Shown: positions 22,870 to 49,396, counted from the first letter of the stretch. The stretch is DNA of 64,000 nt from Candidatus Bathyarchaeota archaeon (GCA_963726255.1 CAVSBL010000002.1:416001-480000), one strand, 5' to 3'. A program made the numbers and translations. Notes: generated from the letters alone by a model not told the origin.

Positions 22870-22892
22870 TGCGCACCAGCCGACCCACACAC
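22870..22892 (-). repeat. Family A site (reverse orientation)
   Basis: TGCGCACCAGCCGACCCACACAC. Confidence 0.7.
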
Positions 22893-22917
22893 GAGCATAT
22901 CCATGAAACAAAGCTCG

Positions 22918-23514
22918 CTAATATGTTATCAGAATCTTCTCTTCAAGCGTTTCTTGAAGCTTCGCGACTGCTCGGTGAACCTCCCCCTCCTTCTTCGCAC
23001 CAGTGCAAACGAGTTTTCCACTGGCGAAAATCAGAATCACGGCCTTTGGGTCATCCATTCGATAGATCAGACCCGGAAACTGTTCAGGCTCATACATGGT
23101 GCGTTTCAGTGAGTAAGTTACCTTTTCCAAATCAATATGGCCGCCTAATCCTGCCGAAGCCACTATATTTTGAACCTGAATCTCAGGCTTACCCAGAATG
23201 ACGATCCCCATACGGTTGAGCTCGTCCACAACTTTCATAACGGCCTTGCGAGCCTGCCGCTCCGACTTCGCCCCAGTACATACCATTTTACCCGAGGTGA
23301 AGATCAACGTGGTGGCCTTCGGTTTTTTCAATCGATATACTAAGCCCGGAAATTGCTCAGGCCTATATTCTACGCCAGGGCACGCACGTACGATAGAGTT
23401 CAAATCAACATTCTGATGGAGAGTTCCTGTCGCGACCACGTTCTCGATGTTGATGAACGCTTTCCTTCCAGGCCGAGGTGCCACCACAGGTAAGCTCGCT
23501 ACATCAACGTTCAT
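22918..23514 (-). CDS. tbp: TATA-box-binding protein
   Basis: Two repeats: IENVVA..YRPEQFPGLVYRL..LIFTSGKMVCTGAK and QNIVAS..YEPEQFPGLIYRM..LIFASGKLVCTGAK. Confidence 0.96.
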   Translation of the reverse strand: MNVDVASLPVVAPRPGRKAFINIENVVATGTLHQNVDLNSIVRACPGVEYRPEQFPGLVYRLKKPKATTLIFTSGKMVCTGAKSERQARKAVMKVVDELNRMGIVILGKPEIQVQNIVASAGLGGHIDLEKVTYSLKRTMYEPEQFPGLIYRMDDPKAVILIFASGKLVCTGAKKEGEVHRAVAKLQETLEEKILITY

Positions 23515-23660
23515 GAAAACTTCAACTAGATATTCCCTACATCAATGTTCATGAGAACGAAAACCCTTGCAACACTCAACGCCAATCTATTGTACTCCAC
23601 CTTAAGTGAGTATCTACAAACATCCAGACTCAACGTGACAAGAACTCGTTGAACCGTGAG

Positions 23661-23686
23661 GTGTGTGTGGGCCTAGTGGTACACAT
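23661..23686 (+). repeat. Family A site (forward)
   Basis: GTGTGTGTGGGCCTAGTGGTACACAT. Confidence 0.7.
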
Positions 23687-23740
23687 GCTCTAAGGTTTCT
23701 TTATCTACGTTTTATAACACATTATCCAGTTGTTCTGCAT

Positions 23741-24913
23741 ATGAGACATGTTTTTGACATTACCATCGTAGGCGGCTCATTTGCCGGCATCAAGTCTGCG
23801 TGGGACTTACGGAACAAGATTCCTCGCCGCCACAGGATAACCCTGATTTCCGATAAGTCTAAGACGATAATTCGAGCCTCCTTCCCGCGAGTAGTCTTCG
23901 AGGATGTCCCTCTCGAAGAACTAGCGTTAGATTTGGCTAAGAATTTCAAAGGCACGGGCATCGAGTTTATCCATGATCGTCTTGTAAGGATTGATCAAAA
24001 CGATAACCAGATCATTACAGCTGAAGGCAAGCACAAGTTTGACTTTCTAGTCGTCGCCACAGGCGCGCGCCAAGCCTACGAACTTCTTCCCGGCAGTCAT
24101 GAATATGCCAGGTCCATATGCGACCCATCCCAAATTTTGGAGACAAAGAAGGCTATCCTGAATTTTCGAGAAGGCGATTTCTATTCTGGAGTAGGAGCAG
24201 GCTATACACCCTGCGACGGCCCTCCTCTAGAAATGCTCATGGGCCTGGATCACCGCTTACGCAAGCTGGGCTCCCGCGATAAAGCCCAACTCAACTTCAT
24301 CACAGACAAGGAGAAGGTTCTGCCACCAGGCGGACCGACAATTTGGGCGTACCTAGAAAACCTCTTCAAGAAACGACGGATCAATGCTCTGCTCGGCGTT
24401 GAGCTTACAAGGCTTGACGCCGATTATCTCTACTTTGCAGACGGCTCGAAGAAACCCTACGACCTCTGCTTACTAATACCGCCTTACCGCGGCGTTAAGG
24501 AAGTGGAGGACTCTGGCCTAACAGAAGAGCTAGGTTTCATTCCGGTCGAACAGAACACCATGCGTGCCCAAAAATCTGAAAACTCGAACATCTACGCCGT
24601 AGGAGATGCCGCCGCGATCCCTGGCCCCAAGCAGGGGCACCTCGCGCTCATGCAAGCAGGCGTCGCAGCAGCTCACATCGCTTGGCGCATCAACAAGAAG
24701 GGCGAGGTACCAAGCTACATACCTGAATTCAAGTGCGTCATGTATCTTGGCGGTGGAAAAAGCCTGCAATTATACTCGCAATGGATGTCCGACGGCGACG
24801 TTCAAATAGCAAAAGCCAGCCATCAAGCTGAACTTTCCAAAATCAAATTCGAAAAACTCTTCTTCAGCCGCCGCGGTAACATCGGTGAACTTCATAGAAA
24901 AATGATAAAGTAG
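23741..24913 (+). CDS. FAD-dependent oxidoreductase, sulfide:quinone oxidoreductase-like
   Basis: ITIVGGSFAG, DFLVVATG, PCDGPPLE, NIYAVGD, PKQGH, FKCVMYLGGG (two SQR-type Cys). Confidence 0.8.
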   Translation: MRHVFDITIVGGSFAGIKSAWDLRNKIPRRHRITLISDKSKTIIRASFPRVVFEDVPLEELALDLAKNFKGTGIEFIHDRLVRIDQNDNQIITAEGKHKFDFLVVATGARQAYELLPGSHEYARSICDPSQILETKKAILNFREGDFYSGVGAGYTPCDGPPLEMLMGLDHRLRKLGSRDKAQLNFITDKEKVLPPGGPTIWAYLENLFKKRRINALLGVELTRLDADYLYFADGSKKPYDLCLLIPPYRGVKEVEDSGLTEELGFIPVEQNTMRAQKSENSNIYAVGDAAAIPGPKQGHLALMQAGVAAAHIAWRINKKGEVPSYIPEFKCVMYLGGGKSLQLYSQWMSDGDVQIAKASHQAELSKIKFEKLFFSRRGNIGELHRKMIK

Positions 24914-24954
24914 AATCCGCAGTTACTCAGCCTCCAACCAATCGCGTTAATGAT

Positions 24955-26451
24955 ATGGCAGAACAAACGAGCAACGACCAGTGGCGTGGGAGTGGCCGAA
25001 CCTTAGCGAGTGATGTTGGGGCTTCGAATTACAAGTGGACTGTTCTTCTGATCACTACGATTGGGGCTTTCATGGCGCCGTTTGATGGCAGCGTAGTGAC
25101 AATCGCGATTCCCGCCATCGCCTCCTCGATCAGGCTGGGATTGGAGGCGGCGGTTTGGATTCAACTAGCCTACCTTCTCTTTTTGACAGTGCTTTTGATT
25201 AATGCGGGTAGGCTGGCCGACCTTCATGGAAGGAAACGGTTCTACACGCTCGGGTTCATCATCTTCACCGTCGGATCGGTGCTTTGCGCGCTGTCCACGA
25301 CAGATCTACAGCTAGTATCTTTCAGAGCCTTACAGGGGTTGGGGGCGGCGTTCATTTCCGCTAATAGTCCCGCAATCGTAACCGACACGTTTCCCCGGGA
25401 AGAACGCGGTAAAGCATTGGGCATCAACACGATGGCAGTATACACCGGGCTCATGGTTGGCCCTGTGCTCGGAGGTGTTCTGGTTCAGAATTATGGTTGG
25501 AGGTCGATCTTCTTCGTGAACGTCCCAATTGGGATCGTAGTAGTTGCGTTAACCACTCTCAAATTGAAAGAGAATATGCCTGACGAGAGGGGGACAGGAT
25601 TTGACCTTCCGGGCGCAGCAACGCTCTCCTTAGGATTAGCCTCGACGCTAGTTGTGCTGACGCTCGGTGGTGTGTTTGGTTGGGTTTCAGCACCCAGCAT
25701 CCTGCTAGCTGGGCTGAGCGTTGTCATGCTGCTGTTGTTCTGGCGAATTGAGACAGGGCTAGTCCGGTTTCCCACGTTGGATTTGTCGTTGTTTACGCGG
25801 AACCGGTTGTTTGCGGCAGCGAATGCGACCGCTTTTCTGAGTTATGTTGCGGTGAACGGGGTCACGTTGACGATGGCGATCTACTTGGAGAGTATCAAGG
25901 GCCTAGGCCCGCAGACTGCGGGCTTATTCCTGATTGCGCAGGCTACGCCAATGGCTTTGCTTTCCCCGTTGAGTGGTTGGCTCTCAGACCGGTTTGGGTC
26001 GAGAGTGCTGTCAACGTTGGGTATGGGCATTGTAAGTATGGGGTTGTTATTGTTTTCAGAGTTGAATGCGACGTCGTCGGCGTTGGATACGGTCTTGAGG
26101 CTTGTGGTGGTTGGGGTTGGGTTTGGCTTGTTCTCGTCCCCCAACACGAGTGCTGTGATGGGTTCTGTGAGGCAGGAGAAGTTGGGGGTAGCGGCTGGAA
26201 CATTGGGTACAATGCGTTTCATGGGCCAGTCGATAGGATTGGCATTGCTTGGGATGGTTATGGCGGCCACATTGCCGTCCCAGGCTTTGCTCGCGGTTTT
26301 CGCTGGGCTCACCTCACAAGGCGGCTTGACAGTTAGCGAGTTTGTTGTGGGGATGAGGGACTTCTTCCTGATAGCTGCTGGAATAGGAGCAATTGGAACG
26401 CTAGCGTCAACGACCAGAGGTCAAGAAAACACATCGAATGCGGAAGATTGA
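24955..26451 (+). CDS. MFS drug:H+ antiporter (DHA2/EmrB-QacA type)
   Basis: GRLADLHGRKR, FRALQGLG, GWRSIFFVNVPIG, GWLSDRFGSR; many TM segments. Confidence 0.92.
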   Translation: MAEQTSNDQWRGSGRTLASDVGASNYKWTVLLITTIGAFMAPFDGSVVTIAIPAIASSIRLGLEAAVWIQLAYLLFLTVLLINAGRLADLHGRKRFYTLGFIIFTVGSVLCALSTTDLQLVSFRALQGLGAAFISANSPAIVTDTFPREERGKALGINTMAVYTGLMVGPVLGGVLVQNYGWRSIFFVNVPIGIVVVALTTLKLKENMPDERGTGFDLPGAATLSLGLASTLVVLTLGGVFGWVSAPSILLAGLSVVMLLLFWRIETGLVRFPTLDLSLFTRNRLFAAANATAFLSYVAVNGVTLTMAIYLESIKGLGPQTAGLFLIAQATPMALLSPLSGWLSDRFGSRVLSTLGMGIVSMGLLLFSELNATSSALDTVLRLVVVGVGFGLFSSPNTSAVMGSVRQEKLGVAAGTLGTMRFMGQSIGLALLGMVMAATLPSQALLAVFAGLTSQGGLTVSEFVVGMRDFFLIAAGIGAIGTLASTTRGQENTSNAED

Positions 26452-26480
26452 AAGGCGATTCTACGGGGGAATCTGAGAAT

Positions 26481-26513
26481 GCGTGAATGCGAGCACCAGT
26501 TGTACCACGCACA
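26481..26513 (-). repeat. Degenerate family A site (reverse)
   Basis: GCGTGAATGCGAGCACCAGTTGTACCACGCACA. Confidence 0.4.
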
Positions 26514-26559
26514 TATTTTTGACGGCGAATGACGACGGTTGGAACGGGAATTTGCCTGT

Positions 26560-26780
26560 AAGATGTCGTTCGGATTTCTAGTTCTATGTTTGATTAGTGC
26601 ATAGGCGATTGTCATGAAGACTGCGAGTAAGGGTAGACCGTAGGGATATTCGGGTATTGCATTATTGGTTGCCGTGAAATTCACGCATGAACTCTGTGGA
26701 ACAGATTCGGGTCCCTGATACGGGTAACTGTTGTCAAAGGCATAGACGCTGTACATGCCTGCAGGAAATGGTCTTCGCAT
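26560..26780 (-). pseudogene. C-terminal fragment of a surface protein with PEF-CTERM-like sorting signal
   Basis: AIPEYPYGLPLLAVFMTIAYALIKHRTR (PEx motif, TM, basic tail) with no N-terminal part. Confidence 0.55.
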
Positions 26781-26823
26781 GTGCGTATCAGTTGTACCTC
26801 ATCTTCGGTGACTGTCATCTTAT

Positions 26824-26850
26824 TGTGTGCGCACCATTAGACCCCGCACA
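26824..26850 (-). repeat. Family A site (reverse)
   Basis: TGTGTGCGCACCATTAGACCCCGCACA. Confidence 0.8.
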
Positions 26851-27114
26851 AAAATCCCGAATATACCTGAGAAACCTTAGCCTAAGAGTCAAGCGTGAGA
26901 ATGTAAGCCTGCTAGGGACGAGGCCCCTGACTTCGTTCGATCGAGATTGGGTTGAGGCGTGTTAACACTCATCATAATCCCGGAGATAACGCACGACCTC
27001 GAAATGAGGGCCTACATCATGCAGATGGCCCATCTCGGTATGGAACACGCACGTTCTATATGAGGTACATTGATATACCTACATCCATGCCATATACTAC
27101 TGAGAGTCGAAAAT

Positions 27115-28560
27115 ATGCAAAGAAAACAATTAGCATACACAGCCGCATTCATCCTACTTCTAGCCCTCCCATTTCTGTCAATTCCATCACTCACAGCGCC
27201 CCAGCAATCAAACCTCCAGTTCGAACCACTCATACTCTTAGCCCCCGACGACGCCCAATACCCAACCGTCGGCCCATTCGCGTGCACAACACCAATCCCA
27301 GTCCGCTACTCAACCTCGTTCCACTGCTACAACCCCGCCAACATAACCGAAGCATACGGCGTCGATAGCCTCCACGCAGCCGGAATTACAGGAGCAGGCG
27401 AAACAATAGTCATAGTCGACGCGTATGGCAGCCCAACCGCACAGAACGACCTAAACTTCTTCAGCACCACCTTCGGTCTCCCAAGCGCCAGCCTCACCAT
27501 CGTCTACCCCGACGGCACCCCAACCTGGAGTCCGTCTGCGATGAAAGGCGTCAAGGTCAACTGGGCCGTGGAAACAAGCCTTGACCTGCAATGGGCCCAC
27601 GCCATAGCCCCGGGCGCTAAACTAGTCCTCATCGCAACCAACCCAGCAGAGACACAAGGCGTGCAAGGATTCCCGAACATGTTCAAAGGGATCCAATACG
27701 CCATCAACAACTATCCAGGCTCAGTCGTAAGCCAGAGCTTTGCCGCTACCGAGCAATCGTTCCATTCAGCAGGCGACGCAATAATCCGACAATTCGACAA
27801 AGTATACCAACAAGCCGAAGCTAACTATGTGACCGTCATTGGGGCCTCAGGCGATAGCGGTACAGCGAACTCCATAGGCGGCCAAGGCGCGTCCACACCC
27901 AAACCACTCGCCTACCCAACAGTCAATTGGCCATCCTCCGACCCGCTAGTAACCTCCGCAGGCGGAACATGGCTTCAATACAACTGGACATGGACCCCAA
28001 CCTCGCCGACAGACCTAACCTACGCCACAACACCCGGCTCAAAGACTGAAGCCGTATGGAACGAACCATTCCTGCCCGCAGCGACCGGCGGCGGACTCAG
28101 TACACTATTCTCAAAGCCATCATTCCAATCAAGCATACCTTCCAGCCTATTGAACGGCCAACGCGGATTACCGGACCTATCATGGAACGCAGCAGTTGAC
28201 GGCGGAGTCCTAGTCTACACAAGCTTCCCAGGATTGGGAACCGGCTGGCACATAGTAGGTGGAACCAGCGCAGCCTCACCACAACTAGCAGGCCTAATCG
28301 CCCTCGCAAACCAGAAAGCTGACATACTCGGCAAGAGCCACCACGTCGGCTACCTCAACCCAATCCTTTACACATTGCCAGCCTCCGACTTCAACGACAT
28401 CATCCCACAAACCTTCGGCAGCGTAACAATAGACAACAATTCGCTATACGGCTCAGGCGTCGCAGGCTACTCAGTGACGGTAGGATACGACCTCGCCACT
28501 GGATTCGGAAGCCCGAACGCAGCCAACTTCGTCAACGACCTCGCCAACGCACTACCCTAG
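27115..28560 (+). CDS. Secreted S53 (sedolisin/kumamolisin-like) peptidase
   Basis: Signal peptide; ETSLDLQW (Glu/Asp), ASGDSG, GGTSAASP (Ser), YDLATGFGSP. Confidence 0.9.
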   Translation: MQRKQLAYTAAFILLLALPFLSIPSLTAPQQSNLQFEPLILLAPDDAQYPTVGPFACTTPIPVRYSTSFHCYNPANITEAYGVDSLHAAGITGAGETIVIVDAYGSPTAQNDLNFFSTTFGLPSASLTIVYPDGTPTWSPSAMKGVKVNWAVETSLDLQWAHAIAPGAKLVLIATNPAETQGVQGFPNMFKGIQYAINNYPGSVVSQSFAATEQSFHSAGDAIIRQFDKVYQQAEANYVTVIGASGDSGTANSIGGQGASTPKPLAYPTVNWPSSDPLVTSAGGTWLQYNWTWTPTSPTDLTYATTPGSKTEAVWNEPFLPAATGGGLSTLFSKPSFQSSIPSSLLNGQRGLPDLSWNAAVDGGVLVYTSFPGLGTGWHIVGGTSAASPQLAGLIALANQKADILGKSHHVGYLNPILYTLPASDFNDIIPQTFGSVTIDNNSLYGSGVAGYSVTVGYDLATGFGSPNAANFVNDLANALP

Positions 28561-28688
28561 CCTTGAAAAAAGGCCAGCAACTCTCCCTTCCCTTTCTTTC
28601 TTTTCCAGATCGCGATCTTAACCTCACGGTTGAATCGTACCTTCGCGGTGTATCTTGATTTGTATGATTGCTAGTATCTTTCGGAAAC

Positions 28689-29303
28689 TCACAGGGTCTT
28701 CTTCAGGGCCCGTATGTTGAATGTTGTATTGGCGCAACCATTCCTGATTAAAGGCACATTTTGACCTGGCAGCCCCGTCTTCTCTAGCAGCCTTTCAGCT
28801 AGCTTGATCTCCTCGCCGCAGGCGACGCCCACAAGTGCCTCATAACGGCCTTTTTGCAGAATCTGATGGATACATGACCCGCCCGGCAGAACATAAACAT
28901 CGTACCCTCTCTCCTCCCCAGCCAGTGTCGCTTGGTTTACCAAGCAATCGGGTGAACAGTGAGAGCAGCGGTATGATGGAATGTTGGAATCGAAGACGGC
29001 TTTACAGCGATTGTCCATATATTTCCTTGAGCAGTGAGGTAGCAGCAGCACTCGCCTGGAAGTTCTTACGAATCTTTCCCGGTTGTTGAAATTCTTAGTC
29101 TGGATATCTATCAAATCTTCGAGGAGCATTAGAGCTTGAGCAAAATCCAACCCTGTGATCTCCTGAACTCTGAATCGCTCAAGAAGACGCAGAGTTGCCT
29201 CACCAATTCTTCTGTGCAGCCTTCTCTTCTGGGCAGCCACCACAATTCCTGTGAAGAACGATTGAGATAGCCGTGTCAGGTCGAACTTGAATTGGTAAGG
29301 CAT
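28689..29303 (-). CDS. DUF116-domain protein
   Basis: LLLPHC, C..CSPDC, YVLPGGS, VGVACGEE, NGCANT. Confidence 0.82.
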   Translation of the reverse strand: MPYQFKFDLTRLSQSFFTGIVVAAQKRRLHRRIGEATLRLLERFRVQEITGLDFAQALMLLEDLIDIQTKNFNNRERFVRTSRRVLLLPHCSRKYMDNRCKAVFDSNIPSYRCSHCSPDCLVNQATLAGEERGYDVYVLPGGSCIHQILQKGRYEALVGVACGEEIKLAERLLEKTGLPGQNVPLIRNGCANTTFNIRALKKTL

Positions 29304-29371
29304 GAGTCTCGTATTACCGCCAGGAGCAATAAGCTCACAGGGCGAGTCCTGGTTTTGGTACTTTATCGGAA

Positions 29372-29404
29372 GTGCGTGCGCGCACCAGCAGACCCCATAC
29401 ACAC
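29372..29404 (-). repeat. Family A site (reverse)
   Basis: GTGCGTGCGCGCACCAGCAGACCCCATACACAC; abuts the stop codon of the adjacent gene. Confidence 0.75.
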
Positions 29405-29701
29405 CTAATCGATATGTCCCAGCAGAATCTGCCAGGGCTCGATCTTAGCGATTCGGAGTATGCCCATCGACATCCAAGGATCGGCAGCAAGTCGTCTCTC
29501 AATCGCACTTTCTCTGTCAGCACTGACGATCAGCATTCTTGAATCATCGCCCAAAGGACCGCCGAGAAGTACAAAACGCTCGTCAACAAGGCTGTTCATA
29601 AATGCCGCATGTTTGGCCCACTCTTCTTGCTCCCGTATGGACCGCGAATGATTCCAGGCTGGGCCAAGCGCTTCAATTACCACGAAATACTTCATACTCA
29701 T
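29405..29701 (-). CDS. YciI-family protein
   Basis: GPAW...REQ..W..HAAFM..L...FVLLGGPL, LAADPW. Confidence 0.8.
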   Translation of the reverse strand: MSMKYFVVIEALGPAWNHSRSIREQEEWAKHAAFMNSLVDERFVLLGGPLGDDSRMLIVSADRESAIERRLAADPWMSMGILRIAKIEPWQILLGHID

Positions 29702-29782
29702 CCGTTCGAGATCTATACAGAGTTTGTCAAATTGCCGACAAACGCTTGTCACAAGGGCGGCTGAAGTTCAGGCATTTTCCTA

Positions 29783-29813
29783 TGTGTATGGGTCTAATGG
29801 TGCGCACACACAC
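29783..29813 (+). repeat. Family A site (forward, near-complete palindrome)
   Basis: TGTGTATGGGTCTAATGGTGCGCACACACAC. Confidence 0.85.
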
Positions 29814-29858
29814 TAAGAAAAGGGAAGCCTCAAAAACCATTCGAACTAATGGGAATGC

Positions 29859-30308
29859 ATGAATTCCGAGGTTCTTGATCTCGAACTGCTGATTCGTAAG
29901 CCACCAGATTCGGTTCGCGCCTGGTGGACGGAGTACCCGGACGACTACCGCGCGAAGGACCCACGAGAACAACCATACCGAATCCTGACCACTCGTCGGT
30001 TCCCGAACGGCCGAGAGGTTAGAACCTATTGGCGACTGCCCGATGGATCAACTCCGGAGTTGCAGGAGGTCCTCAACTTGAAACCCGACGGAACGTGGAC
30101 TTATGAACTTCCGTATCCAAATCCAACAGGCATCCATGTCTTCGATGAATTTCGCACTGAACCAACACCGATCGGAACCAGACTCTTGATACATAGTACG
30201 TTGACACCGCGAGACCCTGCCGCTACAGGCCGTGTTTCCGGGCTAAAGGAAATCATGATTTGGAGTTGGAAGCATGCAGCAGAGGTTTGTGAACATGACG
30301 CCCCTTGA
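29859..30308 (+). CDS. Hypothetical protein, possibly SRPBCC/START fold
   Basis: IRKPPDSVRAWWT start, EPTPIGTRL and a C-terminal helix. Confidence 0.55.
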   Translation: MNSEVLDLELLIRKPPDSVRAWWTEYPDDYRAKDPREQPYRILTTRRFPNGREVRTYWRLPDGSTPELQEVLNLKPDGTWTYELPYPNPTGIHVFDEFRTEPTPIGTRLLIHSTLTPRDPAATGRVSGLKEIMIWSWKHAAEVCEHDAP

Positions 30309-30410
30309 TTAAGTCAGCCTACGGCAAAACCGAATCTCCCTCTGTGGTCTGTGGGTGTACTGCGTCATAATGGGCACAGGGAAAACATTCCGAATACGAC
30401 GCCTAGAATC

Positions 30411-31103: not shown

Positions 31104-31165
31104 GACTTGATCGTAGCGGGAGTATGATGCAGCGTTATTTGTTTCTTATCCTTGTTGGGGCGAGT

Positions 31166-32887: not shown

Positions 32888-32953
32888 GCAGGGCCACAAG
32901 CCGCATTCTCATCCAATTTCACATGTAACCGCTGGGCTGTTTGCGTAGTACTC

Positions 32954-33008
32954 ATGGTGCGCACACACACAGCCCTTACGGTGACAACCTCAACGGTCTG
33001 CGCACCAG
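32954..33008. repeat. Two partial family A sites (forward 32954-32970, reverse 32999-33008)
   Basis: ATGGTGCGCACACACAC and TGCGCACCAG. Confidence 0.65.
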
Positions 33009-33627
33009 CTCATAAGGTACCCAATATCCTCGCTAGTACCAGAAACCCAAGTCGGAGCTATAGAATCTGGACAAGCCAGTGGACTCTTTCGCAAACGTCT
33101 TGAATACAGCCTGAAAGAAACAGGCCTGCATGAATGCGCGACTAGCGGTATCGTGTTTTGCTGTCAGTAAAGAAGCGGTGATCGTTTTGAACCATTGAGA
33201 GATTCCCGCTAGTAAGCGGGGCAGACCTGCCGGATTTGTAACGGCGACCAACCCCTCAGATATGGAAGGAATTAGGCGAGTTTTGGAGTGCCCAGGTCAA
33301 CGTCGGATTTGTGCTCTCGCAGCAGATTATCGATGACAACAATCCAATCAGCCTATTATCTCTAGAGGTGCAGGCTGACTTGGAGGCATGAATTGAATGC
33401 TTGGTTCGAGCGGTTACGTCACGTATTCGAAATGTGGGTTGTTCTTGTTTTCACTCGGTATCCGCATCTCTTAATGATGGATCGATACTCGGAGGAAAAG
33501 GCCCAGATCATGACTAGACTGTCGAACGAGACCAGAACGAAGAACTCAAGGAGCAATAAATCCTCCCGACTTTAGACTGGCTCCTTTCTTGTGCGAATTG
33601 GAGTGCCCTGATTGAACTGACGTTCCG

Positions 33628-33669
33628 GTGTGTGTGGGTCTAGTGGTGCGAGCAGTGGAATTTGAACCG
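33628..33669 (+). repeat. Family A left arm fused to a tRNA 3'-end complement
   Basis: GTGTGTGTGGGTCTAG-TGGTGCGAGCAGTGGAATTTGAACCG. Confidence 0.78.
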
Positions 33670-33744
33670 TCGTCGTTCGTAGTTAGTGAAGGTATGTAGG
33701 CGCACCAAGGGTACCAAATATGTCTGACCGCACGTGCGCGCTTC

Positions 33745-34944
33745 CTAGGTCGCCGCTGGAGTTGGTTCTTTGATTTTGAACCAGATTATGAAACCGATTA
33801 TGATAGCTAGGACTAGGTTGAGTATGAAGGGGGATTGTGGTGATATGTTGTCCCACATCCACCCACCTAGGATTGGGGACACGGCTGATGCCATGCCGGC
33901 AACGAGCGCCAGTATCCCAAACGTCTGACCGTACCTCTCTCGCCCGTAATGCAGAACAATGTGAGCGTTTAGGGCGGGCATCCACAAACTGTAGACGAAA
34001 CCAGCGAACACGGCGGATATGTACGCGAACTCAGGTCTCCAACCCAACAAAAGCGGCAGAAAACAACCAATAGCGGACCATTCACTAGCCGCCAGGAAAG
34101 GCCTCCCGCCGAGCTTGTCGAGCTTGGAACCCAACGTGAAACCCGTCAGCGCTGGGATTCCAGCGGAGATTGCCAATGCTATCCCTAACTGTTCTGGGGT
34201 AGATTTCATCTCTTTGAAAATATACAACGCCCAGAAGGGGAAGCTGATTCTCCATGCGACTGAATCGAGCGCTACTACCACCAGCAAAGGTATGAGGCTT
34301 TTGTCGGGGCGTAGGAACCCCCACCAAGACCCGGCTGCGGCTTCGGTTCGCTGGATTGGCTCTGGTTTGTAGCCCAGAGCCACGACTCCGAGAGCAGTTG
34401 CAACGAGAACGGCGGAAGTTGTGAAAATTATTTGTCTCGGGAGACCCATCGTGGTCGCTAAGAAACCCCCAAGGAGCGGTGCCAGTGTGGCGGCCGTTTC
34501 AGTTATGCCAAGGTCAATGCTGAAAATCTTTCCAAGTCCCTGCGTTGTGGTTGCGTGGCCGAGCGCCGCGTATGAAGCTGTCCCACGAATCGCCTGGTCC
34601 AAACTCACTAGCACGATGCCCGCGCCCAACAGAACCCAGTATGTGGCGAAAGAGTACGAAAAGAAACCAACCAGCGTCACGAGTCCCCCTACGAGAATGA
34701 AGGGTTTTCGCCCAATTCGATCAATCAAGACACCAATGGGCAAGCGAAGAAATGTGGCGCCCAGGCCTCCGATGGTTTGAGCTTGACCCACGAATGTTAT
34801 GCTAACCCCGATGGCGACGATTAACGGCGCGACGGAGGGAGAGCTGAAGCCAACCGCGAACCCGAAAAGCCCATCCACCATTATCAGGAGTAAGATCTCA
34901 CCCCTGAACAAACTAGGCCGAGCAATTGGGCTCGTCGGATACAC
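33745..34944 (-). CDS. MFS transporter
   Basis: GVLIDRIGRKP, SKLDKLGGRP; about 12 TM segments. Confidence 0.85.
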   Translation of the reverse strand: MYPTSPIARPSLFRGEILLLIMVDGLFGFAVGFSSPSVAPLIVAIGVSITFVGQAQTIGGLGATFLRLPIGVLIDRIGRKPFILVGGLVTLVGFFSYSFATYWVLLGAGIVLVSLDQAIRGTASYAALGHATTTQGLGKIFSIDLGITETAATLAPLLGGFLATTMGLPRQIIFTTSAVLVATALGVVALGYKPEPIQRTEAAAGSWWGFLRPDKSLIPLLVVVALDSVAWRISFPFWALYIFKEMKSTPEQLGIALAISAGIPALTGFTLGSKLDKLGGRPFLAASEWSAIGCFLPLLLGWRPEFAYISAVFAGFVYSLWMPALNAHIVLHYGRERYGQTFGILALVAGMASAVSPILGGWMWDNISPQSPFILNLVLAIIIGFIIWFKIKEPTPAAT

Positions 34945-35164
34945 CCCGAAGCAAACTCGGACACGAAGAGACTATTTCTGGATGTCCACTCATTGCCGGC
35001 AGCGATTTCGAACGTAAAAGAACCGGGCAATGCGGGCTCTGTTCGGTTTATGGCTGTTCGTGTCGGTTGTTCGGCATCGGCGGATGTTTATTCAGAGTTT
35101 TTCATGTCACGCGCCCACATTATACTATATAGTCTTCGAATGAGAAGTAACAGGGAGAGGAAAC

Positions 35165-35497
35165 ATGAAGATTGATGGAGTCGCGTTCTCCATAACCGAG
35201 TGGAGTGCAGTTGAGCCTGTTGAACATAGGGGAGAGAAGGGTTCAGCCTATTGGCGCACGTTGGAGACCGGAAACGTGCGCGTTCGAATCGTCGAATACT
35301 CCCCTGGGTACGTTGCGGATCATTGGTGCACTAGGGGACATGTGCTCTTGGTTCTGGAGGGAGAGTTAGTCACGGAGTTGAAGGATGGAAGAAAATTCAC
35401 GCTGAAACCTGGTTGCAGCTACCAAGTCGCAGACGACGAAAGAAATCCACACAAGTCAAGTACAGAGAAGGGCGCCAAACTGTTCATCGTCGACTAG
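35165..35497 (+). CDS. DHCW-motif cupin-fold protein
   Basis: EYSPGYVADHWCTRGH, SYQVADD..PH.S. Confidence 0.88.
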   Translation: MKIDGVAFSITEWSAVEPVEHRGEKGSAYWRTLETGNVRVRIVEYSPGYVADHWCTRGHVLLVLEGELVTELKDGRKFTLKPGCSYQVADDERNPHKSSTEKGAKLFIVD

Positions 35498-35499
35498 GC

Positions 35500-35521
35500 T
35501 GTGTGTGCTCTATCTGGTGTG
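35500..35521 (+). repeat. Degenerate family A site
   Basis: TGTGTGTGCTCTATCTGGTGTG, 2 nt after the cupin stop codon. Confidence 0.4.
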
Positions 35522-35615
35522 ACTGAATGTTCGTTAGAGCCACTGAGCATAACAATCTTTAAACTAATTATGACTAGCCACAATCCATTGAGACAGCTCG
35601 GGGAAAAAAGCAGGG

Positions 35616-36401
35616 TTGAACGGTTTTAACCGGAAAATACTATTGAACTTGGTCTTTGTCTCAATTGTACTCCTTGCCTTTTCCACTTTGCTGGGGAGCG
35701 CGTTCGGTCAGGTAGACTGCCCACCTGGATCACCGGGATTCCCGAATTGTGATTCGGGCGGTTTGCTGAGAGATGTCCTGACCTCTGTGCTGACACTTCT
35801 AGTTGTTCTCAACCCTGTAGTTGGACTGGTGTATTTCTCAGGCCTTACAGCTGGTTCGACCGTCCGTCAGAAGCAATTGATCGCAAACCGGGCTTCAGTC
35901 GTTGTTATCGTTCTGCTCTTGTTCTTCGCCTACCTAGGGGACGGAATACTAGCCGCACTAGGCATCACTTTGCATTACATTATGATCGCCGGAGGACTAT
36001 TCATTCTAATCTTCGCGATCAAGGACGCGCTTGGGGGTGCGTCCATTTCGGAGCATATGGATGAATCTGCGACCCCAAGCGGAGGTCAACTGTCTGATGC
36101 AGACGCGGAACGCATTGCCATCATACCGCTCGCGGTACCAGTGCTTGCTGGCCCAGGAGCGATGGCCGCAGTTATGATTTTGAATGATTTGCAATTCGGT
36201 TTCGTGGCGACCGGCATCGCCGTCGTAATCGATGCTACAATATGCTGGGTTACCATGCGGTTGAGCAGCAGGATTTTGAGTGCGGTTAGGCCCTCCTTCT
36301 TGACGATTGTGGGAAAGGTGATGGATATACTTGTCAGCGGTGTAGCCGTTGCATTCCTCATTCGAGGAATTACCGGAGCCTTGGGCATAAGTTTCGTTTG
36401 A
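35616..36401 (+). CDS. MarC-family membrane protein
   Basis: VVLNPV, IAGGL, IIPLAVPVLAGPGAMAAV. Confidence 0.88.
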   Translation: MNGFNRKILLNLVFVSIVLLAFSTLLGSAFGQVDCPPGSPGFPNCDSGGLLRDVLTSVLTLLVVLNPVVGLVYFSGLTAGSTVRQKQLIANRASVVVIVLLLFFAYLGDGILAALGITLHYIMIAGGLFILIFAIKDALGGASISEHMDESATPSGGQLSDADAERIAIIPLAVPVLAGPGAMAAVMILNDLQFGFVATGIAVVIDATICWVTMRLSSRILSAVRPSFLTIVGKVMDILVSGVAVAFLIRGITGALGISFV

Positions 36402-36500
36402 GGCACACATAATTTGCGAGTGTGGGGGTAAAAGGATTGCACAGCAGCAGAAAATTGAAGAAGATTGAATGTGTACTGAATATGTATCGCACGTGAGAAA

Positions 36501-36817
36501 ATGGTAGACAGGGCATACAAAAAGGACCTACCTGCACTGAGGAACGCTCTTGAGGAATTACGAGAGAGCTTTTCCAATCTTAGTTCTAAGACAGATTGGA
36601 CTAAACTGAGAATTGAACCGTTGCTGAAACATTTGCGATCACTGGACAGTTGTTGGAATCAGGAGAGTTTTCAGGAGAATTTTCACGATTGACAAAAGGA
36701 GTTGAGTTATTTCATTCCGACTTGGTGTATCTTAGAACAAATATCAGAGGGTTGGAAAAGGTTCTTCAGTCTGAGAAGAAATTTCTGGGGCGAAAAAACA
36801 AAAAAAGAAGCGGTTGA
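36501..36817 (+). pseudogene. Hypothetical protein with a 1-nt frameshift near 36647
   Basis: After HLRSL the shifted frame continues QLLESGEFSGEFSRLTKGVELFHSDLVYLRTNIRGLEKVL. Confidence 0.5.
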
Positions 36818-36847
36818 GCAGCACGTCCCATTCACCGGTCACCTTTC

Positions 36848-36882
36848 GTGTGTGTGGTGCGGTCTCGTGGTGCGCACACACA
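36848..36882 (+). repeat. Family A site (forward)
   Basis: GTGTGTGTGGTGCGGTCTCGTGGTGCGCACACACA. Confidence 0.78.
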
Positions 36883-36940
36883 ACCCTCAAGAGCCCAGTA
36901 ATCGTCCCTGAAGATGCGAGGAGAAACATGTCAGAGCGAA

Positions 36941-37087
36941 CTTGAGAAAGCGGTCGAACTGATTGAAGCGGAATACTCGAGAGGCGCAGATTGGCTGGGC
37001 GAAATCGCATATGACCCATTGTACGCTGCGGTCTCCGATGACCCCCGAGTCAAATCGATTCTAAGGAAGCTAGGGATTGCTCTCTAA
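36941..37087 (+). pseudogene. C-terminal fragment of a TolB-N/TPR protein
   Basis: LEKAVELIEAEYSRGADWLGEIAYDPLYAAVSDDPRVKSILRKLGIAL resembles the tail of 39414-40967. Confidence 0.55.
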
Positions 37088-37124
37088 GCTTCTTATTTCC
37101 CCACATCATGTGCGGAGCTTTGCA

Positions 37125-37148
37125 TGTGTGTGCGCACCATTAGACCCC
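37125..37148 (-). repeat. Family A site (reverse)
   Basis: TGTGTGTGCGCACCATTAGACCCC. Confidence 0.82.
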
Positions 37149-37219
37149 CCAAGGACAGGAAATATCATGAAATCATAAAATCACAAAAATAGAAAGAGAA
37201 TAGACACCGCATGAATGAC

Positions 37220-37534
37220 TTAGGCGAGGGCTAGAGGAATTACCTTCTCGGTTGGCAGGGCCGGAGACGTCTTATGGCGTGTGAAGAATCCTGGCATCGC
37301 TTTTGTCCAAAGAAGTTGGGCGTTGAATGCGGCTTCTTCATTCTCGGCTTCGAATATTGTTACGCCCCAAGATGGGATGCTCGGAGTTATGTACCAGGCG
37401 ATGACTTTGACTCCCTTTGTAGGCCACTTACCTGATTGGGCCAGTTGGGCTCCTATCTTCGCAATTTCCTTGATGTCTTTGTCGGGATTCAATTCCCAAT
37501 AGGTCATCATTAACATAGCTTTCACCTCCTTCAA
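37220..37534 (-). CDS. DUF3303-like small protein
   Basis: MLMMTYWE, GVKVIAWY, GVTIFEAENEE..W..SPAL. Confidence 0.65.
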   Translation of the reverse strand: MKEVKAMLMMTYWELNPDKDIKEIAKIGAQLAQSGKWPTKGVKVIAWYITPSIPSWGVTIFEAENEEAAFNAQLLWTKAMPGFFTRHKTSPALPTEKVIPLALA

Positions 37535-37557
37535 ACTTAATGTTAGGGAGTTCCACG

Positions 37558-38034
37558 CTAGGTTTTCGCTTCAGCTCTCCTCGCTAGGATTTGTCTGATT
37601 TCGATTGGGAGCTGAGGCTCGTAGCTCACTTGAAGCATCCACCGTAGTAAGTCGCGTTCCGAAACGAGACCGACAAGTTCCTCTCCATCGATGACTGGGA
37701 GCCTTCGGATACCGTGCTTAGCCATAAGATAAACGGCTTTGTCTATAGAAGTGCCCGGGGTTGCAGTAATAAGCGGACCTGACATTACTCGCCTCACTGG
37801 GGTTATCAGAAGATTCGAGCTCTTCGCAACTCTTCGAGACACATCACGTTCCGTGACAATTCCTACAGGTTTCTTACCTTCGACAACTACCACACACCCG
37901 ATGTTTTTCTTGACGATCTTCTTGAGCGCGTATTGAAGAAGGTCGGTCGGTTTCACGGTTTCAACGGGGCTAACCATTACCGATTCTACGCAGTCAACAA
38001 AACTTCCAGGCTCTCTCTTCCTCATCACGCGCAT
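37558..38034 (-). CDS. CBS-domain protein
   Basis: VGIVTERD, VM..PLIT, IRRLPV, VGLVSERD. Confidence 0.9.
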   Translation of the reverse strand: MRVMRKREPGSFVDCVESVMVSPVETVKPTDLLQYALKKIVKKNIGCVVVVEGKKPVGIVTERDVSRRVAKSSNLLITPVRRVMSGPLITATPGTSIDKAVYLMAKHGIRRLPVIDGEELVGLVSERDLLRWMLQVSYEPQLPIEIRQILARRAEAKT

Positions 38035-38130
38035 CCCAACTACGGCCCAACACCTTCAGGTATTACTTCTAAGAGTTGCCGTATGTTACTTTCTTACTCG
38101 CAGCGGCGACGGAGATACGACTTTTTCGTG

Positions 38131-38162
38131 GTGCGTGTGCGCACCGACCTACCCACATCCAC
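38131..38162 (-). repeat. Family A site (reverse, degenerate)
   Basis: GTGCGTGTGCGCACCGACCTACCCACATCCAC. Confidence 0.6.
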
Positions 38163-38264
38163 TAAAACACGCCTCCGGACTCCATGAATAGAACATGGGA
38201 TTCAGGAGTTGGAAAGCTTATCCGCTCTTTGCATCGTTATTTCACTGTTTAGTCAAGGCTTCCC

Positions 38265-38291
38265 TGTGCCCCTAACGGGGCGCACACACAC
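38265..38291 (+). repeat. Family A site (forward, degenerate)
   Basis: TGTGCCCCTAACGGGGCGCACACACAC. Confidence 0.5.
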
Positions 38292-38371
38292 TTTCAAGAC
38301 ATGAAGGACGACGGTCCGAATTACGAGGGGGGCACCAGGTAACGCCGGGGTCGTCCCTGTTCAACAGCCCA

Positions 38372-39073
38372 TCACTTGGCCAGGGATACCAGGTCCTTGG
38401 CCAGCTCTTCAGGTTTCGTAATCATCGGCCAATGAGCTGTTTCAATGAGATTGTAGGGGCCTTCCAGCTTTCCCCACTTCCCGGCAATTATCTCGTCGAC
38501 TGGGTCCCCGCTGAGACTGCAGAAGACGTATGCCTCCTTCACCTCGTCGTAGTTCTTTGACAGCGTGATCGGGTCGGTCGCAAGTCTAATCGGCCAGGGT
38601 GTCGCCATGGACATCATCCATTTTCGGTTTGAGCCTCTGACATCCTTTCCGATGCGGTCGATAATCTCCTCGGTGAGTGGAATTGCAGTACCGCCCTGGG
38701 GCGGAGACCCGAACTCGCGCGTAGGGTCGAACCCACCCTGCGGCGTCCTCACCTTCTCTGGTCGGAATGCATCAACGTAGATGACCGTCTCTACCTTTTG
38801 GTGTACGCGGTCCGCCACGGCGGCCACCACTTTGCCCGCAAAGCTGTGCCCCACCAGAACGCAAGCGTCAAGATCGTTGTACTTGATCACGTTGATGACA
38901 TCCTGGATGGCGGTCTCCATGCCGACATCTTTCGTGGCAAGGTGGACCCTTTCGCCCATTCCAGTCAATGTGACTGGATAGGCAGAATGACCCTCTTTCT
39001 CGAGGAGTGGAGTTACCTCCTTCCAGGCCCACGCCCCCAACCATGCGCCTGGAACTAGCACGAATCTTACCAT
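38372..39073 (-). CDS. Alpha/beta hydrolase (esterase-like)
   Basis: FVLVPGAWLGAWAW, LVGHSFAG, YVDA, HWPMITKP. Confidence 0.9.
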   Translation of the reverse strand: MVRFVLVPGAWLGAWAWKEVTPLLEKEGHSAYPVTLTGMGERVHLATKDVGMETAIQDVINVIKYNDLDACVLVGHSFAGKVVAAVADRVHQKVETVIYVDAFRPEKVRTPQGGFDPTREFGSPPQGGTAIPLTEEIIDRIGKDVRGSNRKWMMSMATPWPIRLATDPITLSKNYDEVKEAYVFCSLSGDPVDEIIAGKWGKLEGPYNLIETAHWPMITKPEELAKDLVSLAK

Positions 39074-39229
39074 GGGGACCCTTGGGGATAGCTCGCTACA
39101 TAAGTCTCTCGAATGTAACCTCTGGTCAGAGGGTTGTGTGAAAATAATGCACGAGGGAATCCAACCGTGTTCTCGTGGCATATGACATCATACGCATGGT
39201 GTCGAATCACACCTCACTCGCAAAGCCGA

Positions 39230-39252
39230 GTGTGTGTGGGTCTATTGGTGCG
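39230..39252 (+). repeat. Family A left arm plus core
   Basis: GTGTGTGTGGGTCTATTGGTGCG. Confidence 0.8.
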
Positions 39253-39413
39253 CCGCCCCCGCCGCGGGCTTAATGACCTTGACGACGCCGACGAAGACGA
39301 ACGATTACGACGACGCTAATACGAACGACGACATGATTGCTTACGAACGACAAGAACTCTTCAACGAGAACCTACAGAACAGTTCTTCATTGCGTATGAG
39401 TATGAAGTGACTG

Positions 39414-40967
39414 TTGAACAATCGAGTCTCTCGGGTGCGAGTTGAGGAAAGGCTCTATATCAACCGGCTCGGCTATCTTAGCCGAATACGACATCAGGTA
39501 ACCGTGAACCCTTTGCAACCAGCCGACTTCGCCCGGTCGAAGAGCTTCATCCCACCCGCATTCTCCTCAACGAAGCCGACGCTTGATAAGAACAGGGTTG
39601 CAGTCCTGCCGTTACAAAACATGAGCCCCGACCCCGCAGATGAATACTTCGCGGATGGCATGACTGAGGAGCTGATTGACAGACTTTCCCAAGTGAAGAG
39701 TCTACAGGTCATAGCTCGAACGTCGGTGATGAATTACAAGAAGAAAGAGAAGAATGTCTCCGAAATTGCAAAGGAGCTTAGCGTGGGTTCAGTGGTTGAA
39801 GGTAGCGTGAGGAAAGCGGGCAACCGGGTCAGAGTCACAGTTCAGCTAATCAGCGCAGAGACCGAGGCGCACCTGTGGTCCTCCCACTACGACAAGAATC
39901 TGGACGACATCTTCGCTGTCCAGAGCGAAATAGCGGAGAAGGTGGTTGGCGAGCTGAAGACCCAACTACTCGACTCTGAGAAAAGGACCCTAGAAAAGAA
40001 GCCGACCGAGAACACGGAGGCGTACACCTGCTTCCTGCGGGGTAGGGAGCTGTACAATGAGGAGACTGAGACCTCGTTTAGGCAGGCCCTCAGCCTCTTC
40101 GAGAAGGCCATCGTGCTGGATCCCAAGTTCGCGAAGGCCTACGTGGGAGTCGCAGACTGCCACCAATCGCTTGTTGGAAGCGGATGCGAGCCCGATGACA
40201 TCGGACTCCCAATTGTGAACACCTCGCTGGAGCGCGCCATTGAACTCGACCCGAACCTTCCGGAGGCCCACGCATCACTCTGCGGGATGTTCTTCAACGC
40301 GGACGACTCCGTGCGGTCGGAGGCAGAGGCGAGGAGGACTTTGGAGCTCAACCCCAGCCTCCCAGACCCCCACAATATCCTAAGCGAGCTAGCTGCGCTC
40401 AAAGGGGACCAAGGAGAGATGGTCAAACAAATGGAGGCAGCGTACCGACTCGACCCCATCAGGCCCCACCTCATCTGGCTTCTCGGGATGGTGTACCTCT
40501 ATACTGGGAAGGAGGAGGAGGCGCTTGAGCTCTGGAAGAAGACAGAGCAGTTGGCGCCGGCGCCCAGGTACAGAGGCATGGTTGAGTACTACCTGGCCAA
40601 GAGGGAGCTCGACAAGGCTAAGGAGTTCCACGCGAAAGCCGAGAAGCTTGAACCCACCCGTCCCTGGCTCTTCTGGACGAGTGGAGTCATCGCGGCCATA
40701 GAAGGCGACAGGGAGAAGGCGCTGCTCGCGTTCAAGAAGATTGAGGACGCCAAGATGGGCCCGATGGGCTTCAACTTCATCGGGTACGTCCATTATGCCC
40801 TCGGAGACCTGAACTCATTCTTCGCGTACATGGATAAGGCCCTCGAAGCCCATGCACTAGTTACCCTAATACTGATGTACTCGCCGCTCTTCGCTCAGGC
40901 AAGAGCCGACCCACGATATCCGGAACTGGTCGAGAGAATCCGGAAGCAGTGTGGCCTAACGAAATAG
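39414..40967 (+). CDS. TolB-N/TPR protein of the adenylate-cyclase-associated type, N-terminal domain missing
   Basis: RVAVLPLQNMSPDPADEYFADGMTEELI, EGSVRKAGNRVRVTVQLI, TPRs, RADPRY; start uncertain. Confidence 0.85.
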   Translation: MNNRVSRVRVEERLYINRLGYLSRIRHQVTVNPLQPADFARSKSFIPPAFSSTKPTLDKNRVAVLPLQNMSPDPADEYFADGMTEELIDRLSQVKSLQVIARTSVMNYKKKEKNVSEIAKELSVGSVVEGSVRKAGNRVRVTVQLISAETEAHLWSSHYDKNLDDIFAVQSEIAEKVVGELKTQLLDSEKRTLEKKPTENTEAYTCFLRGRELYNEETETSFRQALSLFEKAIVLDPKFAKAYVGVADCHQSLVGSGCEPDDIGLPIVNTSLERAIELDPNLPEAHASLCGMFFNADDSVRSEAEARRTLELNPSLPDPHNILSELAALKGDQGEMVKQMEAAYRLDPIRPHLIWLLGMVYLYTGKEEEALELWKKTEQLAPAPRYRGMVEYYLAKRELDKAKEFHAKAEKLEPTRPWLFWTSGVIAAIEGDREKALLAFKKIEDAKMGPMGFNFIGYVHYALGDLNSFFAYMDKALEAHALVTLILMYSPLFAQARADPRYPELVERIRKQCGLTK

Positions 40968-41091
40968 AAGTCGCGTTTAGTCTAGTGACTGTAGAACCTT
41001 CAACCAACCGTTCTACCGCTTGGCCTTCTGCATTATGATTTGATTGTCCGTTAGCGATATCAGCACGGTATCACCGGCTTTTAGAGTAAGA

Positions 41092-41125
41092 GGGTCTAAT
41101 GGTGCGGGCTACCAAAATTGAACCG
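41092..41125 (+). repeat. Family A core fused to a degenerate tRNA 3'-end complement
   Basis: GGGTCTAA-TGGTGCGGGCTACCAAAATTGAACCG. Confidence 0.7.
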
Positions 41126-49384: not shown

Positions 49385-49396
49385 GTTGTGGTATGA

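Follow-up and report, generated by a model that had tools for sequence, protein, structure and literature searches.

A short repeat derived from a tRNA 3' end at the seams of a mosaic gene island in a Candidatus Bathyarchaeota genome

Anatomy and distribution of the repeat

The 64,000-nucleotide stretch of Candidatus Bathyarchaeota DNA considered here (hereafter the window; GCA_963726255.1, CAVSBL010000002.1:416001-480000) belongs to a genome of 2.42 Mb in 5 contigs that is 98.5% complete (G000), and carries an array of short repeats that an original prediction, made from the sequence alone, had put at about 15 copies in 18 kb plus one at 61087. This count is borne out, the motif or a recognisable part of it being present at 17/17 listed start positions, far above chance. 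At up to two mismatches, the left 13-mer GTGTGTGTGGGTC gives 9 matches in the window against a mean of 1.06 and a maximum of 4 in 100 dinucleotide-preserving shuffles, and the 15-nt core GGGTCTARTGGTGCG gives 58 matches in G000 against 10 for a backwards-pattern control, with 9 of the 58 lying at 26.8-41.1 kb of the window. Both orientations occur, as predicted: 11 of the 17 sites carry the core at up to three mismatches, and their strands along the array read, in order, -,+,-,-,+,+,+,+,-,+,+. Merging four overlapping patterns brings the genome to 87 sites in 39 clusters, the largest of which is that of the window (10 sites in 14.3 kb), and 63 of the 87 are intergenic, in a genome with 13% non-coding DNA by crude open reading frame (ORF) calls covering 87% of the contig, in keeping with the predicted placement between genes. 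The sites cluster in variable DNA and are not spread evenly through core intergenic DNA; the predicted absence from the first 17 kb of the window holds for the array, although a single core match with three mismatches lies there, at 16192.

Common to the sites is a constant, asymmetric 23-nt module, (GT)4-GGGTCTAR-TGGTGCG, with a T run upstream of the (GT)n arm. Among 230 distinct copies, taken from this genome and from loci of relatives, the module is followed by CACACACAC in the palindromic form A (86/230), by RGCA-N4-5-AATTTGAAC in the longer form B (77/230), or by unrelated sequence in the form termed 'other' (67/230); conservation of the left part is overstated in this set, since the relatives' loci were chosen by an exact 19-mer. 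A second module often stands 46-70 nt after form B units, in direct (22) or inverted (19) orientation. The limits of the units are fixed by metagenome contigs that share the repeat alone and diverge exactly at 31166/31196 for form A and at 33628/33667 for form B. The sites of the window, together with the portion of the island that holds them, are as follows.

17100..64000, no strand: mosaic island, portion within the window (comparison with relatives)
22870..22892, minus strand: module, reversed (TGCGCACCAGCCGACCCACACAC), outer arm degenerate; a KaiC-like block is inserted here in relative G021 (context listing, relatives)
23661..23687, plus strand: form A-like module, right arm decayed (pattern search)
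26481..26513, minus strand: degenerate reversed module (context listing)
26824..26850, minus strand: form A, reversed (context listing)
29372..29404, minus strand: form A, reversed; adjoins the stop codon closing ORF 29405..29752; end of the DUF116 block in its (GT)n-like arm, at 29378
29783..29813, plus strand: form A; loose contig ends at 29813/29814
31166..31196, plus strand: form A; contigs diverge exactly at both ends (metagenome contigs)
32954..32970, plus strand: half site (TGGTGCG + CACACACAC)
33628..33667, plus strand: form B unit of 40 nt, (GT)4-core-AGCAGTGG-AATTTGAAC; 3' end of the MFS gene
about 33703-33719, reversed: degenerate reversed module after the form B unit 33628..33667
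35500..35528, plus strand: degenerate form B, cut within AAT|TTGAAC; the DUF116 block is joined here in two relatives
36848..36881, plus strand: form A with internal duplication
37125..37150, minus strand: reversed module without (AC)n end
38131..38162, minus strand: degenerate reversed module; the CBS block common to G015 ends in its TTTTC-(GT)n arm
38265..38291, plus strand: degenerate form A
39230..39252, plus strand: module and unrelated sequence ('other' form); kept in place in the closest relative
41092..41123, plus strand: form B lacking the (GT)n arm; immediately downstream of a terminase-like gene (41211..42125, minus strand)
61087..61126, plus strand: form B

The palindromic (GT)n..(AC)n form that had been ascribed to the whole array is found at about seven sites (26824, 29372, 29783, 31166 and 36848, more loosely 23661 and 37125), the others being form B (33628, 41092, 61087) or degenerate or half copies (26481, 32954, 35500, 38131, 38265). 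The predicted contact with a stop codon is exact, the ORF at 29405..29752 on the minus strand ending against the site at 29372-29404. The proposed likeness to dif and loxP is not supported, the conserved unit being the asymmetric module, in which GGGTCTA and TGGTGCG are not inverted repeats. It is primary sequence that the sites keep: the 23 nt are conserved, and covariation is seen neither in the arms, where compensatory change between (GT)n and (AC)n of form A is nearly absent (153 copies, z = 1.3), nor in a form B hairpin. The latter, considered as a mimic of a T arm, was rejected; stems can be drawn in single copies, but pairing of the variable stretch with the sequence after AATTTGAAC is no better than with shuffled partners (77 copies, z ~1). 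Models of the module as a target-site duplication or as a terminal inverted repeat of a transposon were likewise dropped, because both module ends act as block ends.

A TATA-binding protein (TBP) encoded in the window marks the host as an archaeon. Beyond this genome, the GTDB genome collection holds the exact 19-mer at 82 loci, nearly all of them in Candidatus Bathyarchaeia/Bathyarchaeota from peat and soil, and in the viral collection it has 0 exact matches. At up to one mismatch the core is present in 20/22 other genomes of the genus, with at most 39 copies, and in 0/18 genomes of 12 other genera of the order; several genomes of the genus hold 1-2 copies each, no more than the control. The motif scan that the original prediction proposed for this genome and its relatives thus returns 87 sites at home and 20/22 genomes around it, and the repeats are real and genus-wide. 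In the literature searched, which did not extend to supplements or most subscription journals, no description of this repeat was found. The 19-mer also lies on six short contigs (L031, L033, L045, L057, L063 and L088) from bins assigned to Acidoferrum, Chloroflexota, Methylomirabilota, a betaproteobacterium, Promethearchaeati and Dehalococcoidia, which are probably misbinned Bathyarchaeia contigs; L045 carries three form B units, so that its match is not due to chance.

A tRNA-gene edge and a tRNA-like site

The array lies in the interior of a mosaic island, some 67 kb long, that runs from 17.1 kb of the window to C2:500769. At its far end, 21 kb beyond the window, lies a tRNA-Gly(CCC)-like gene on the minus strand, which ends at C2:500770 with its 3' end towards the window. 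When C2:499001-506000 is compared with relatives, homology starts at query positions 1739-1770 in G021, G015, G011 and G017 and runs on for 5 kb, so placed that its start is no more than 30 nt from the CCA (1769/1770) in 4/5 relatives tested; the fifth, G004, matches the far end only (query 5672-7000), and its 30-32-nt matches at the CCA are tRNA-end repeats. The 1.7 kb on the island side is matched by 0/5 relatives. Variable DNA starts from the tRNA 3' end and conserved DNA lies beyond it, as in tRNA-anchored islands, and the CCA of this gene is the fixed edge of the island. Across the island itself (window 17-64 kb and C2:480-499 kb), relatives match as scattered blocks of 0.2-3 kb only, on many contigs, whereas the first 17 kb of the window is colinear with G021 (94-97%), G004 (82%), G015 (79%) and G011 (66-76%). 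In G015, several island blocks of G000 are found at C2:280-302 kb, within 25 kb of its own tRNA-like gene at 304.5 kb.

Read on the opposite strand, the module is CGCACCA-YTAGACCC-(AC)4, which consists of the last three acceptor bases of a tRNA, the discriminator A and the encoded CCA, followed by a 16-nt trailer. At G021:C198 the core (3025-3039, minus strand) overlaps the last 7 nt of the tRNA 3' end GGTCCGAATCCCGGCGGCCGCACCA (3007-3031), and a locus of this arrangement reads ...CGGCCGCACCA|CTAGACCCACACACAC|TTTTCAAACGACGAACGACGG, CTAGACCCACACACAC being followed by TTTTC. The gene concerned, which ends in exactly the module sequence, is called tRNA-Gly(CCC) by ARAGORN and is given no score by the Rfam tRNA model; this intron-bearing gene is therefore named tRNA-Gly-like. 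A form B unit stands 36 nt after the same tRNA end in another species (L123), and in G011 a module lies about 40 nt beyond it. The CCA is encoded in 16/17 printed tRNA genes of G000. The tRNA genes of this genome are rich in introns, ARAGORN giving 35 genes when its intron option is on and 7 when it is off.

In form B the resemblance extends inwards: on the opposite strand the unit reads GGTTCAAAT(T)-N-GCYCGC-A-CCA, in which the T-loop-like GGTTCAAAT keeps the spacing of a tRNA (T loop, 12 nt, A and CCA). As far as sequence can tell, form B units are not functional tRNA parts, since the 9 nt between T loop and CGCACCA vary among copies and match no real tRNA listed, the T stem has no partner and there is no Rfam match. 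The Rfam gathering scan of the window gives 0 matches to any family, an E-value scan (E <=1) of 7 loci with form B units also gives 0, and ARAGORN places 0 tRNAs in the window.

The tRNA 3' end, the tRNA-gene edge of the island and the second, longer form of the site all escaped the original prediction, in which the reality of the repeats was correctly seen.

Apart from the array, two direct copies of a tRNA 3' portion (..TTCRAATCCCACCGGCCCCA) lie at 43538-43604 and 51519-51545 and enclose some 8 kb in which the genes are unannotated and have zinc-ribbon domains, just to the right of the terminase-like gene. The first copy resembles the tRNA domain of tmRNA (E = 1e-4, under the gathering score). 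The segment at 43.5-51.5 kb resembles an integrated element, or the remnant of a provirus, bounded by att repeats of the classical kind, and these direct tRNA-fragment repeats, at 43.58 and 51.53 kb, are flanking repeats of the kind that tRNA-anchored islands carry.

Exchange of gene blocks and breaks at the sites

As the original prediction had proposed, the sites partition the island into blocks of one to three genes, homology to relatives ending at or beside them. The blocks are 93-99% identical to counterparts in G004, G015, G011 and G017, against core identities of 82%, 79% and 70-76% for G004, G015 and G011, stand in different orders in different genomes and pass between species, as illustrated by the following cases.

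cupin block: G004, 96%
DUF116 block: G004, 97%; G011, 96%
DUF3303 + CBS block: G004, 95%
MFS block: G015, 97%
CBS block: G015, 93%
block at window 55727-56310: G015, 99%
block at C2:481812-484007: G004, 97%

The block at 55727-56310 holds a 192-aa ORF without Pfam family and has its twin at G015:C3:127820-128403, core identity between the two genomes being about 79%. The contigs that hold the exchanged blocks are long (1.4 Mb and 528 kb), and binning error is therefore not the explanation. Differences in order are evident at several loci: in L001 and L002 the DUF116 block follows directly after the cupin block, and in G015 the sequence is DoxX-like gene, module, CBS, module, MFS, module. Even against the 95%-identical relative G021, at least six block rearrangements are found in 25 kb. 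Within populations, two of the alternative joints, 23615>30410 and 35527>28655, whose sides measure 30-116 nt, occur in contigs of two runs of one study, one of which may be the sample of the window; joints with sides shorter than 30 nt (31196>33659, 33680>41092, 30803>37125 and others) were given no weight.

The position of the breaks ties this exchange to the sites. Every module-bearing junction is a synteny break (15/15, 0 colinear), compared with 39/60 junctions without a module, of which 21 are colinear, and the proposed link between synteny breakpoints and sites is supported to that extent. Among 77 distinct end points of homology (blocks of at least 88% identity, loci against G000), the distance to a unit is at most 30 nt for 10 and at most 100 nt for 18, against 1.1 and 3.2 for random intergenic points. 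When oriented, these end points pile up after TGGTGCG (offsets 14-16) and at the outer (GT)n end (-8 to 0); exchange at a central spacer, as first envisaged, is not what is seen, the breaks lying at the module ends and not in the TCTART 'spacer'. No filled/empty pair in colinear DNA was found.

Individual joints show the same preference for module ends. In 10 loci the DUF116 block stops at ..GAAGTGYGTG, and what comes after is a core in forward or reversed orientation, a form B tail or none of these; the last bases of the CBS block are TTTTC-(GT)n, with the next core forward in G015 and reversed in G000; and the cupin/DUF116 joint falls within AAT|TTGAAC. The clearest event lies at 22870, where G000 has one module and G021 has a form A and then a form B copy, with a KaiC-like block between them and the shared right flank beyond; the inserted block is 93% identical to G000:C2:1774570-1775446, the core identity of the two genomes being about 95%. 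Such an insertion would fit a single crossover between a form-B-bearing circle and the (AC)n side of the resident site.

The sites are also polar with respect to genes. In 10/10 intergenic form B copies of G000 the tail is turned to the 3' end of a gene, in other genomes in 28 cases against 17, and over all forms and genomes the TGGTGCG/tail side points towards gene 3' ends in 114 cases against 55. From this polarity, the typical block would read, in gene sense, ORF, T-loop-like motif and CGCACCA-YTAGACCC-(AC)n.

A mobile element recognises the same sequence. A 356-aa DEDD/IS110 transposase is encoded in four identical copies in one metagenome-assembled genome (L024, L025, L072, L102) and in one copy at 95% in another (L032), and all full copies of the element sit in the (GT)n arm in one orientation, ..TTTTC-GTGTGTG|IS|GTGTGGGTCTARTGGTGCG, in targets that include all three forms (A, B and 'other'). 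The element has the ends AAAGGATGAAAAGTC.. and ..GACTTTTCATAG, and the Rfam scan of its locus gives 0 matches. In G021, an IS110-type gene fragment adjoins a module (L117:7316-7474). The module is shown by these insertions to be a recognised, repeated landing site, and IS110 insertion does not explain the module itself. IS1111-type elements are known to land in attC. The IS110 family elements ISPpu9, ISPpu10 and IS621 target repetitive extragenic palindromic (REP) sequences, such targeting being described in Pseudomonas; the module may be a natural archaeal target of a bridge-recombinase.

Enzymes, mechanism and competing explanations

The reading preferred here, and given about an even chance of being right, is that the sites are att-type recombination joints derived from a tRNA 3' end, at copies of which gene blocks enter, served by integrases acting in trans. 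Gene blocks of 0.3-3 kb would enter at an existing copy of the site, most likely as circles with a copy of their own, each entry leaving the incoming block with a site at both ends; direct or inverted copies would later recombine, by which blocks would be deleted, inverted and reshuffled, and the same pool of blocks would pass between species. The favoured catalyst would be a tRNA-targeting tyrosine integrase supplied in trans from integrative elements, which are common in relatives and absent in G000, with short-homology recombination at the sites as a fallback. Of this picture, the tRNA identity of the site, the anchoring of the island at the tRNA gene, the passage of blocks between species, the breaks at module ends and the targeting by IS110 are shown, and the circles, the chemistry of the crossover and the enzyme are inferred. 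Tyrosine recombinases occur in 19/22 relatives, many of them adjoining tRNA 3' ends (..CCCCCGCACCA) that are themselves multi-copy in several genomes. At L134 (G011:C5), a real tRNA, a 182-aa gene, a 319-aa integrase, three genes and a form B unit follow one another, the form B unit in the same orientation, a combination of flanking repeats and integrase that characterises tRNA islands and is not seen in G000, and in G003 a form B-like unit lies about 60-90 nt after the end of an integrase gene.

Among known systems, tRNA-anchored islands with att remnants of archaeal and bacterial integrative elements, reportedly described by She and colleagues for Sulfolobus and treated by Williams in 2002 with regard to tRNA sublocations, come close in several respects: the 3' part of a tRNA gene forms the site, the tRNA 3' end is where the island begins, partial tRNA ends lie inside the island, and integrase-bearing elements adjoin tRNA genes in relatives. 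The present case differs in having tens to about 140 copies per genome, in some 39 clusters and both orientations, in single-gene blocks in place of elements of 5-50 kb, and in a conserved part made mainly of the last 7 nt and the trailer and not of a long identity block, with no integrase in G000.

Several findings weigh against the preferred reading. G000 has 0 matches to PF00589 (tyrosine recombinases), not even of XerA type, and likewise 0 to serine recombinases (PF00239), Cas1 (PF01867), reverse transcriptases (PF00078) and Y1 transposases (PF01797), with no IS110 by tblastn. Across the genus, integrase counts do not follow motif counts: integrases occur without the motif in G022 and G009, and many motifs without an integrase in G000 and G007. 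Sites within 1.5 kb of an integrase are found at 2-3/12 loci, about the chance level, and the two flanking sites at L134 are not identical. Furthermore, 39 junctions break without a module, as do the G000/G021 breaks at window 17355, 19069-19133 and 21569; the sites stand in both orientations in about 39 clusters away from the tRNA; the 9 nt of form B named above match no real tRNA listed; and no circular form occurs among the Logan contigs that served as population data, which are unable to reveal circles.

Other enzymes of the region offer little. None of 40 scanned window ORFs is an integrase, and the two TnpB genes of G000 lie far from any site cluster. KaiC-like paralogues, the commonest neighbour genes (13 members in 11/80 loci), were considered as catalyst and rejected. 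By sites lie 5/11 G000 copies (G000:C2:1839934-1840707, 1774623-1775375, 1249289-1250113, 923636-924151 and 1890475-1891257), and the block-borne proteins, of 250-300 aa, are without the Walker A motif, for which reason they are treated as cargo; a paralogue at window 1060-1827 retains GPAKVGKT.

If the preferred reading is true, one genus of uncultured soil and peat Bathyarchaeia would keep a shared pool of single-gene blocks, including transporters, redox enzymes, TBP paralogues and KaiC-like proteins, that move between species 20-30% apart in core DNA by way of a tRNA-end site. The system would then form a bridge between tRNA-anchored islands and integron-like cassette arrays, and the 23-mer could serve as a tag for gene flow, for island edges in fragmented assemblies and for the search for the enzyme.

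The explanation that survives best beside it, unlikely though it is judged to be, holds that the repeats are passive and that blocks are swapped by general or short-homology recombination after DNA uptake, with the sites (23-60 nt) as landing homology and no dedicated recombinase. It would account for the genome with the largest array encoding none of the six recombinase and transposase families sought, for the six or more block rearrangements against a 95%-identical relative, for break points that fall at either module end and in the AATTTGAAC motif and not at a single nucleotide, and for the many breaks without a module. On the other hand, 23-40 nt is short for homologous exchange, the G021 insertion leaves form A and form B in inverted orientation, which a simple double crossover between like repeats would not be expected to do, and the strict polarity of form B (10/10) and the tRNA anchor are typical of att sites.

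Two explanations, each quite unlikely, invoke an integron-like system. In the first, closest to the original prediction, the array is a self-standing integron- or pdif-like cassette system in which the 31-nt palindrome is the core site of a dedicated recombinase, Xer-type, tyrosine or other, encoded elsewhere. In its favour are the arrays in which single-gene blocks meet at a site, the recurrence of these blocks in other contexts and the targeting of the site by an IS110 element, and the cassette idea stands as far as blocks with sites at their seams are concerned. Its Xer/tyrosine recombinase and loxP geometry are not supported: G000 encodes no tyrosine recombinase and there is no genus-wide co-occurrence, compensatory change is lacking in the arms and in the form B hairpin, breaks lie at module ends and not in the TCTART 'spacer', the orientations of blocks and sites are mixed, and the gathering scan of the window against Rfam is empty. 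The further claim that the architecture is not that of attC holds, neither that architecture nor a GTTRRRY box being present. The pdif sites of Acinetobacter plasmids are XerC/XerD sites of 11-6-11 bp, and the likeness is that short sites, in either orientation, bound gene modules that turn up in varied contexts; here, no Xer-type protein is encoded and breaks fall at site ends.

Integron cassette arrays and clusters of attC sites lacking integron-integrases (CALINs) have been reported in Archaea (10.1101/2022.02.06.479319). They share with the present blocks the promoter-poor single genes, perhaps also the site at the 3' end of each, the distribution between species, the occurrence of arrays without a nearby integrase and the targeting of the site by an insertion sequence; the sites described here differ in keeping sequence over structure, in mixed gene orientations, in having no IntI or attI and in their tRNA origin. 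An integrase near the array or in the genome, as expected of an integron, is missing (0 PF00589 matches in G000).

In the second, put on the same footing as the first, tRNA-3'-end mimics are the sites of an archaeal, integron-like capture and exchange of gene blocks that works without a classical site-specific recombinase, the driver being either an unrecognised recombinase family or an RNA-guided IS110/bridge-recombinase activity on the (GT)n arm. The array-richest genome encodes no classical site-specific recombinase of the families sought.

Still less probable is a selfish repeat of the REP or MITE type (MITEs being miniature transposable elements with inverted repeats), or a terminator or promoter signal, that accumulates in junk-tolerant islands and is linked to breaks only indirectly. 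The repeats are short, partly palindromic, intergenic at 63/87 sites and present in tens to about 140 copies; tandem or nested copies occur at 46-70 nt spacing, a T run precedes the (GT)n arm, and REP sequences in Pseudomonas are landing sites of IS110 elements, orientation-specific as here. This explanation is opposed by the 0/15 colinear module junctions and the missing filled/empty pair, by the want of a Y1 (RAYT-type) transposase and of a conserved stem, by the clustering of the copies, and by the fact that no oligo-T follows form B in the sense of the faced gene. Whereas REP sequences are dispersed, hairpin-forming and linked to RAYT proteins, the present repeats are clustered at breaks, have no stem and occur in a genome without Y1 transposase; nor is there an associated transposase of the kind known for REP sequences, bacterial interspersed mosaic elements and MITEs, as PF01797 has 0 matches and the IS110 element uses the site as target and not as its own ends. 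In Neisseria, dRS3/NIME arrays consist of repeats flanking variable segments, and in this the present repeats are similar.

Hardly credible, lastly, are functional tRNA-like RNAs, whether as the 3' half of a split tRNA or as processing signals for RNase P/Z at the 3' ends of mRNAs: the T-loop-like GGTTCAAAT, its exact spacing to ACCA and the intron-rich tRNA genes would suit them, but no Rfam tRNA match is obtained at E <=1 for 7 form B loci, the T stem is without pairing partner, position 61, expected to be C in a tRNA, is mostly T in the copies inspected, and the acceptor 5' strand is missing.

Among the genes carried by island blocks are paralogues of TBP, found at window 22918-23514 and at G000:C2:121118-121644 and 997412-997975; many relatives likewise hold several copies, at 73-90% identity.

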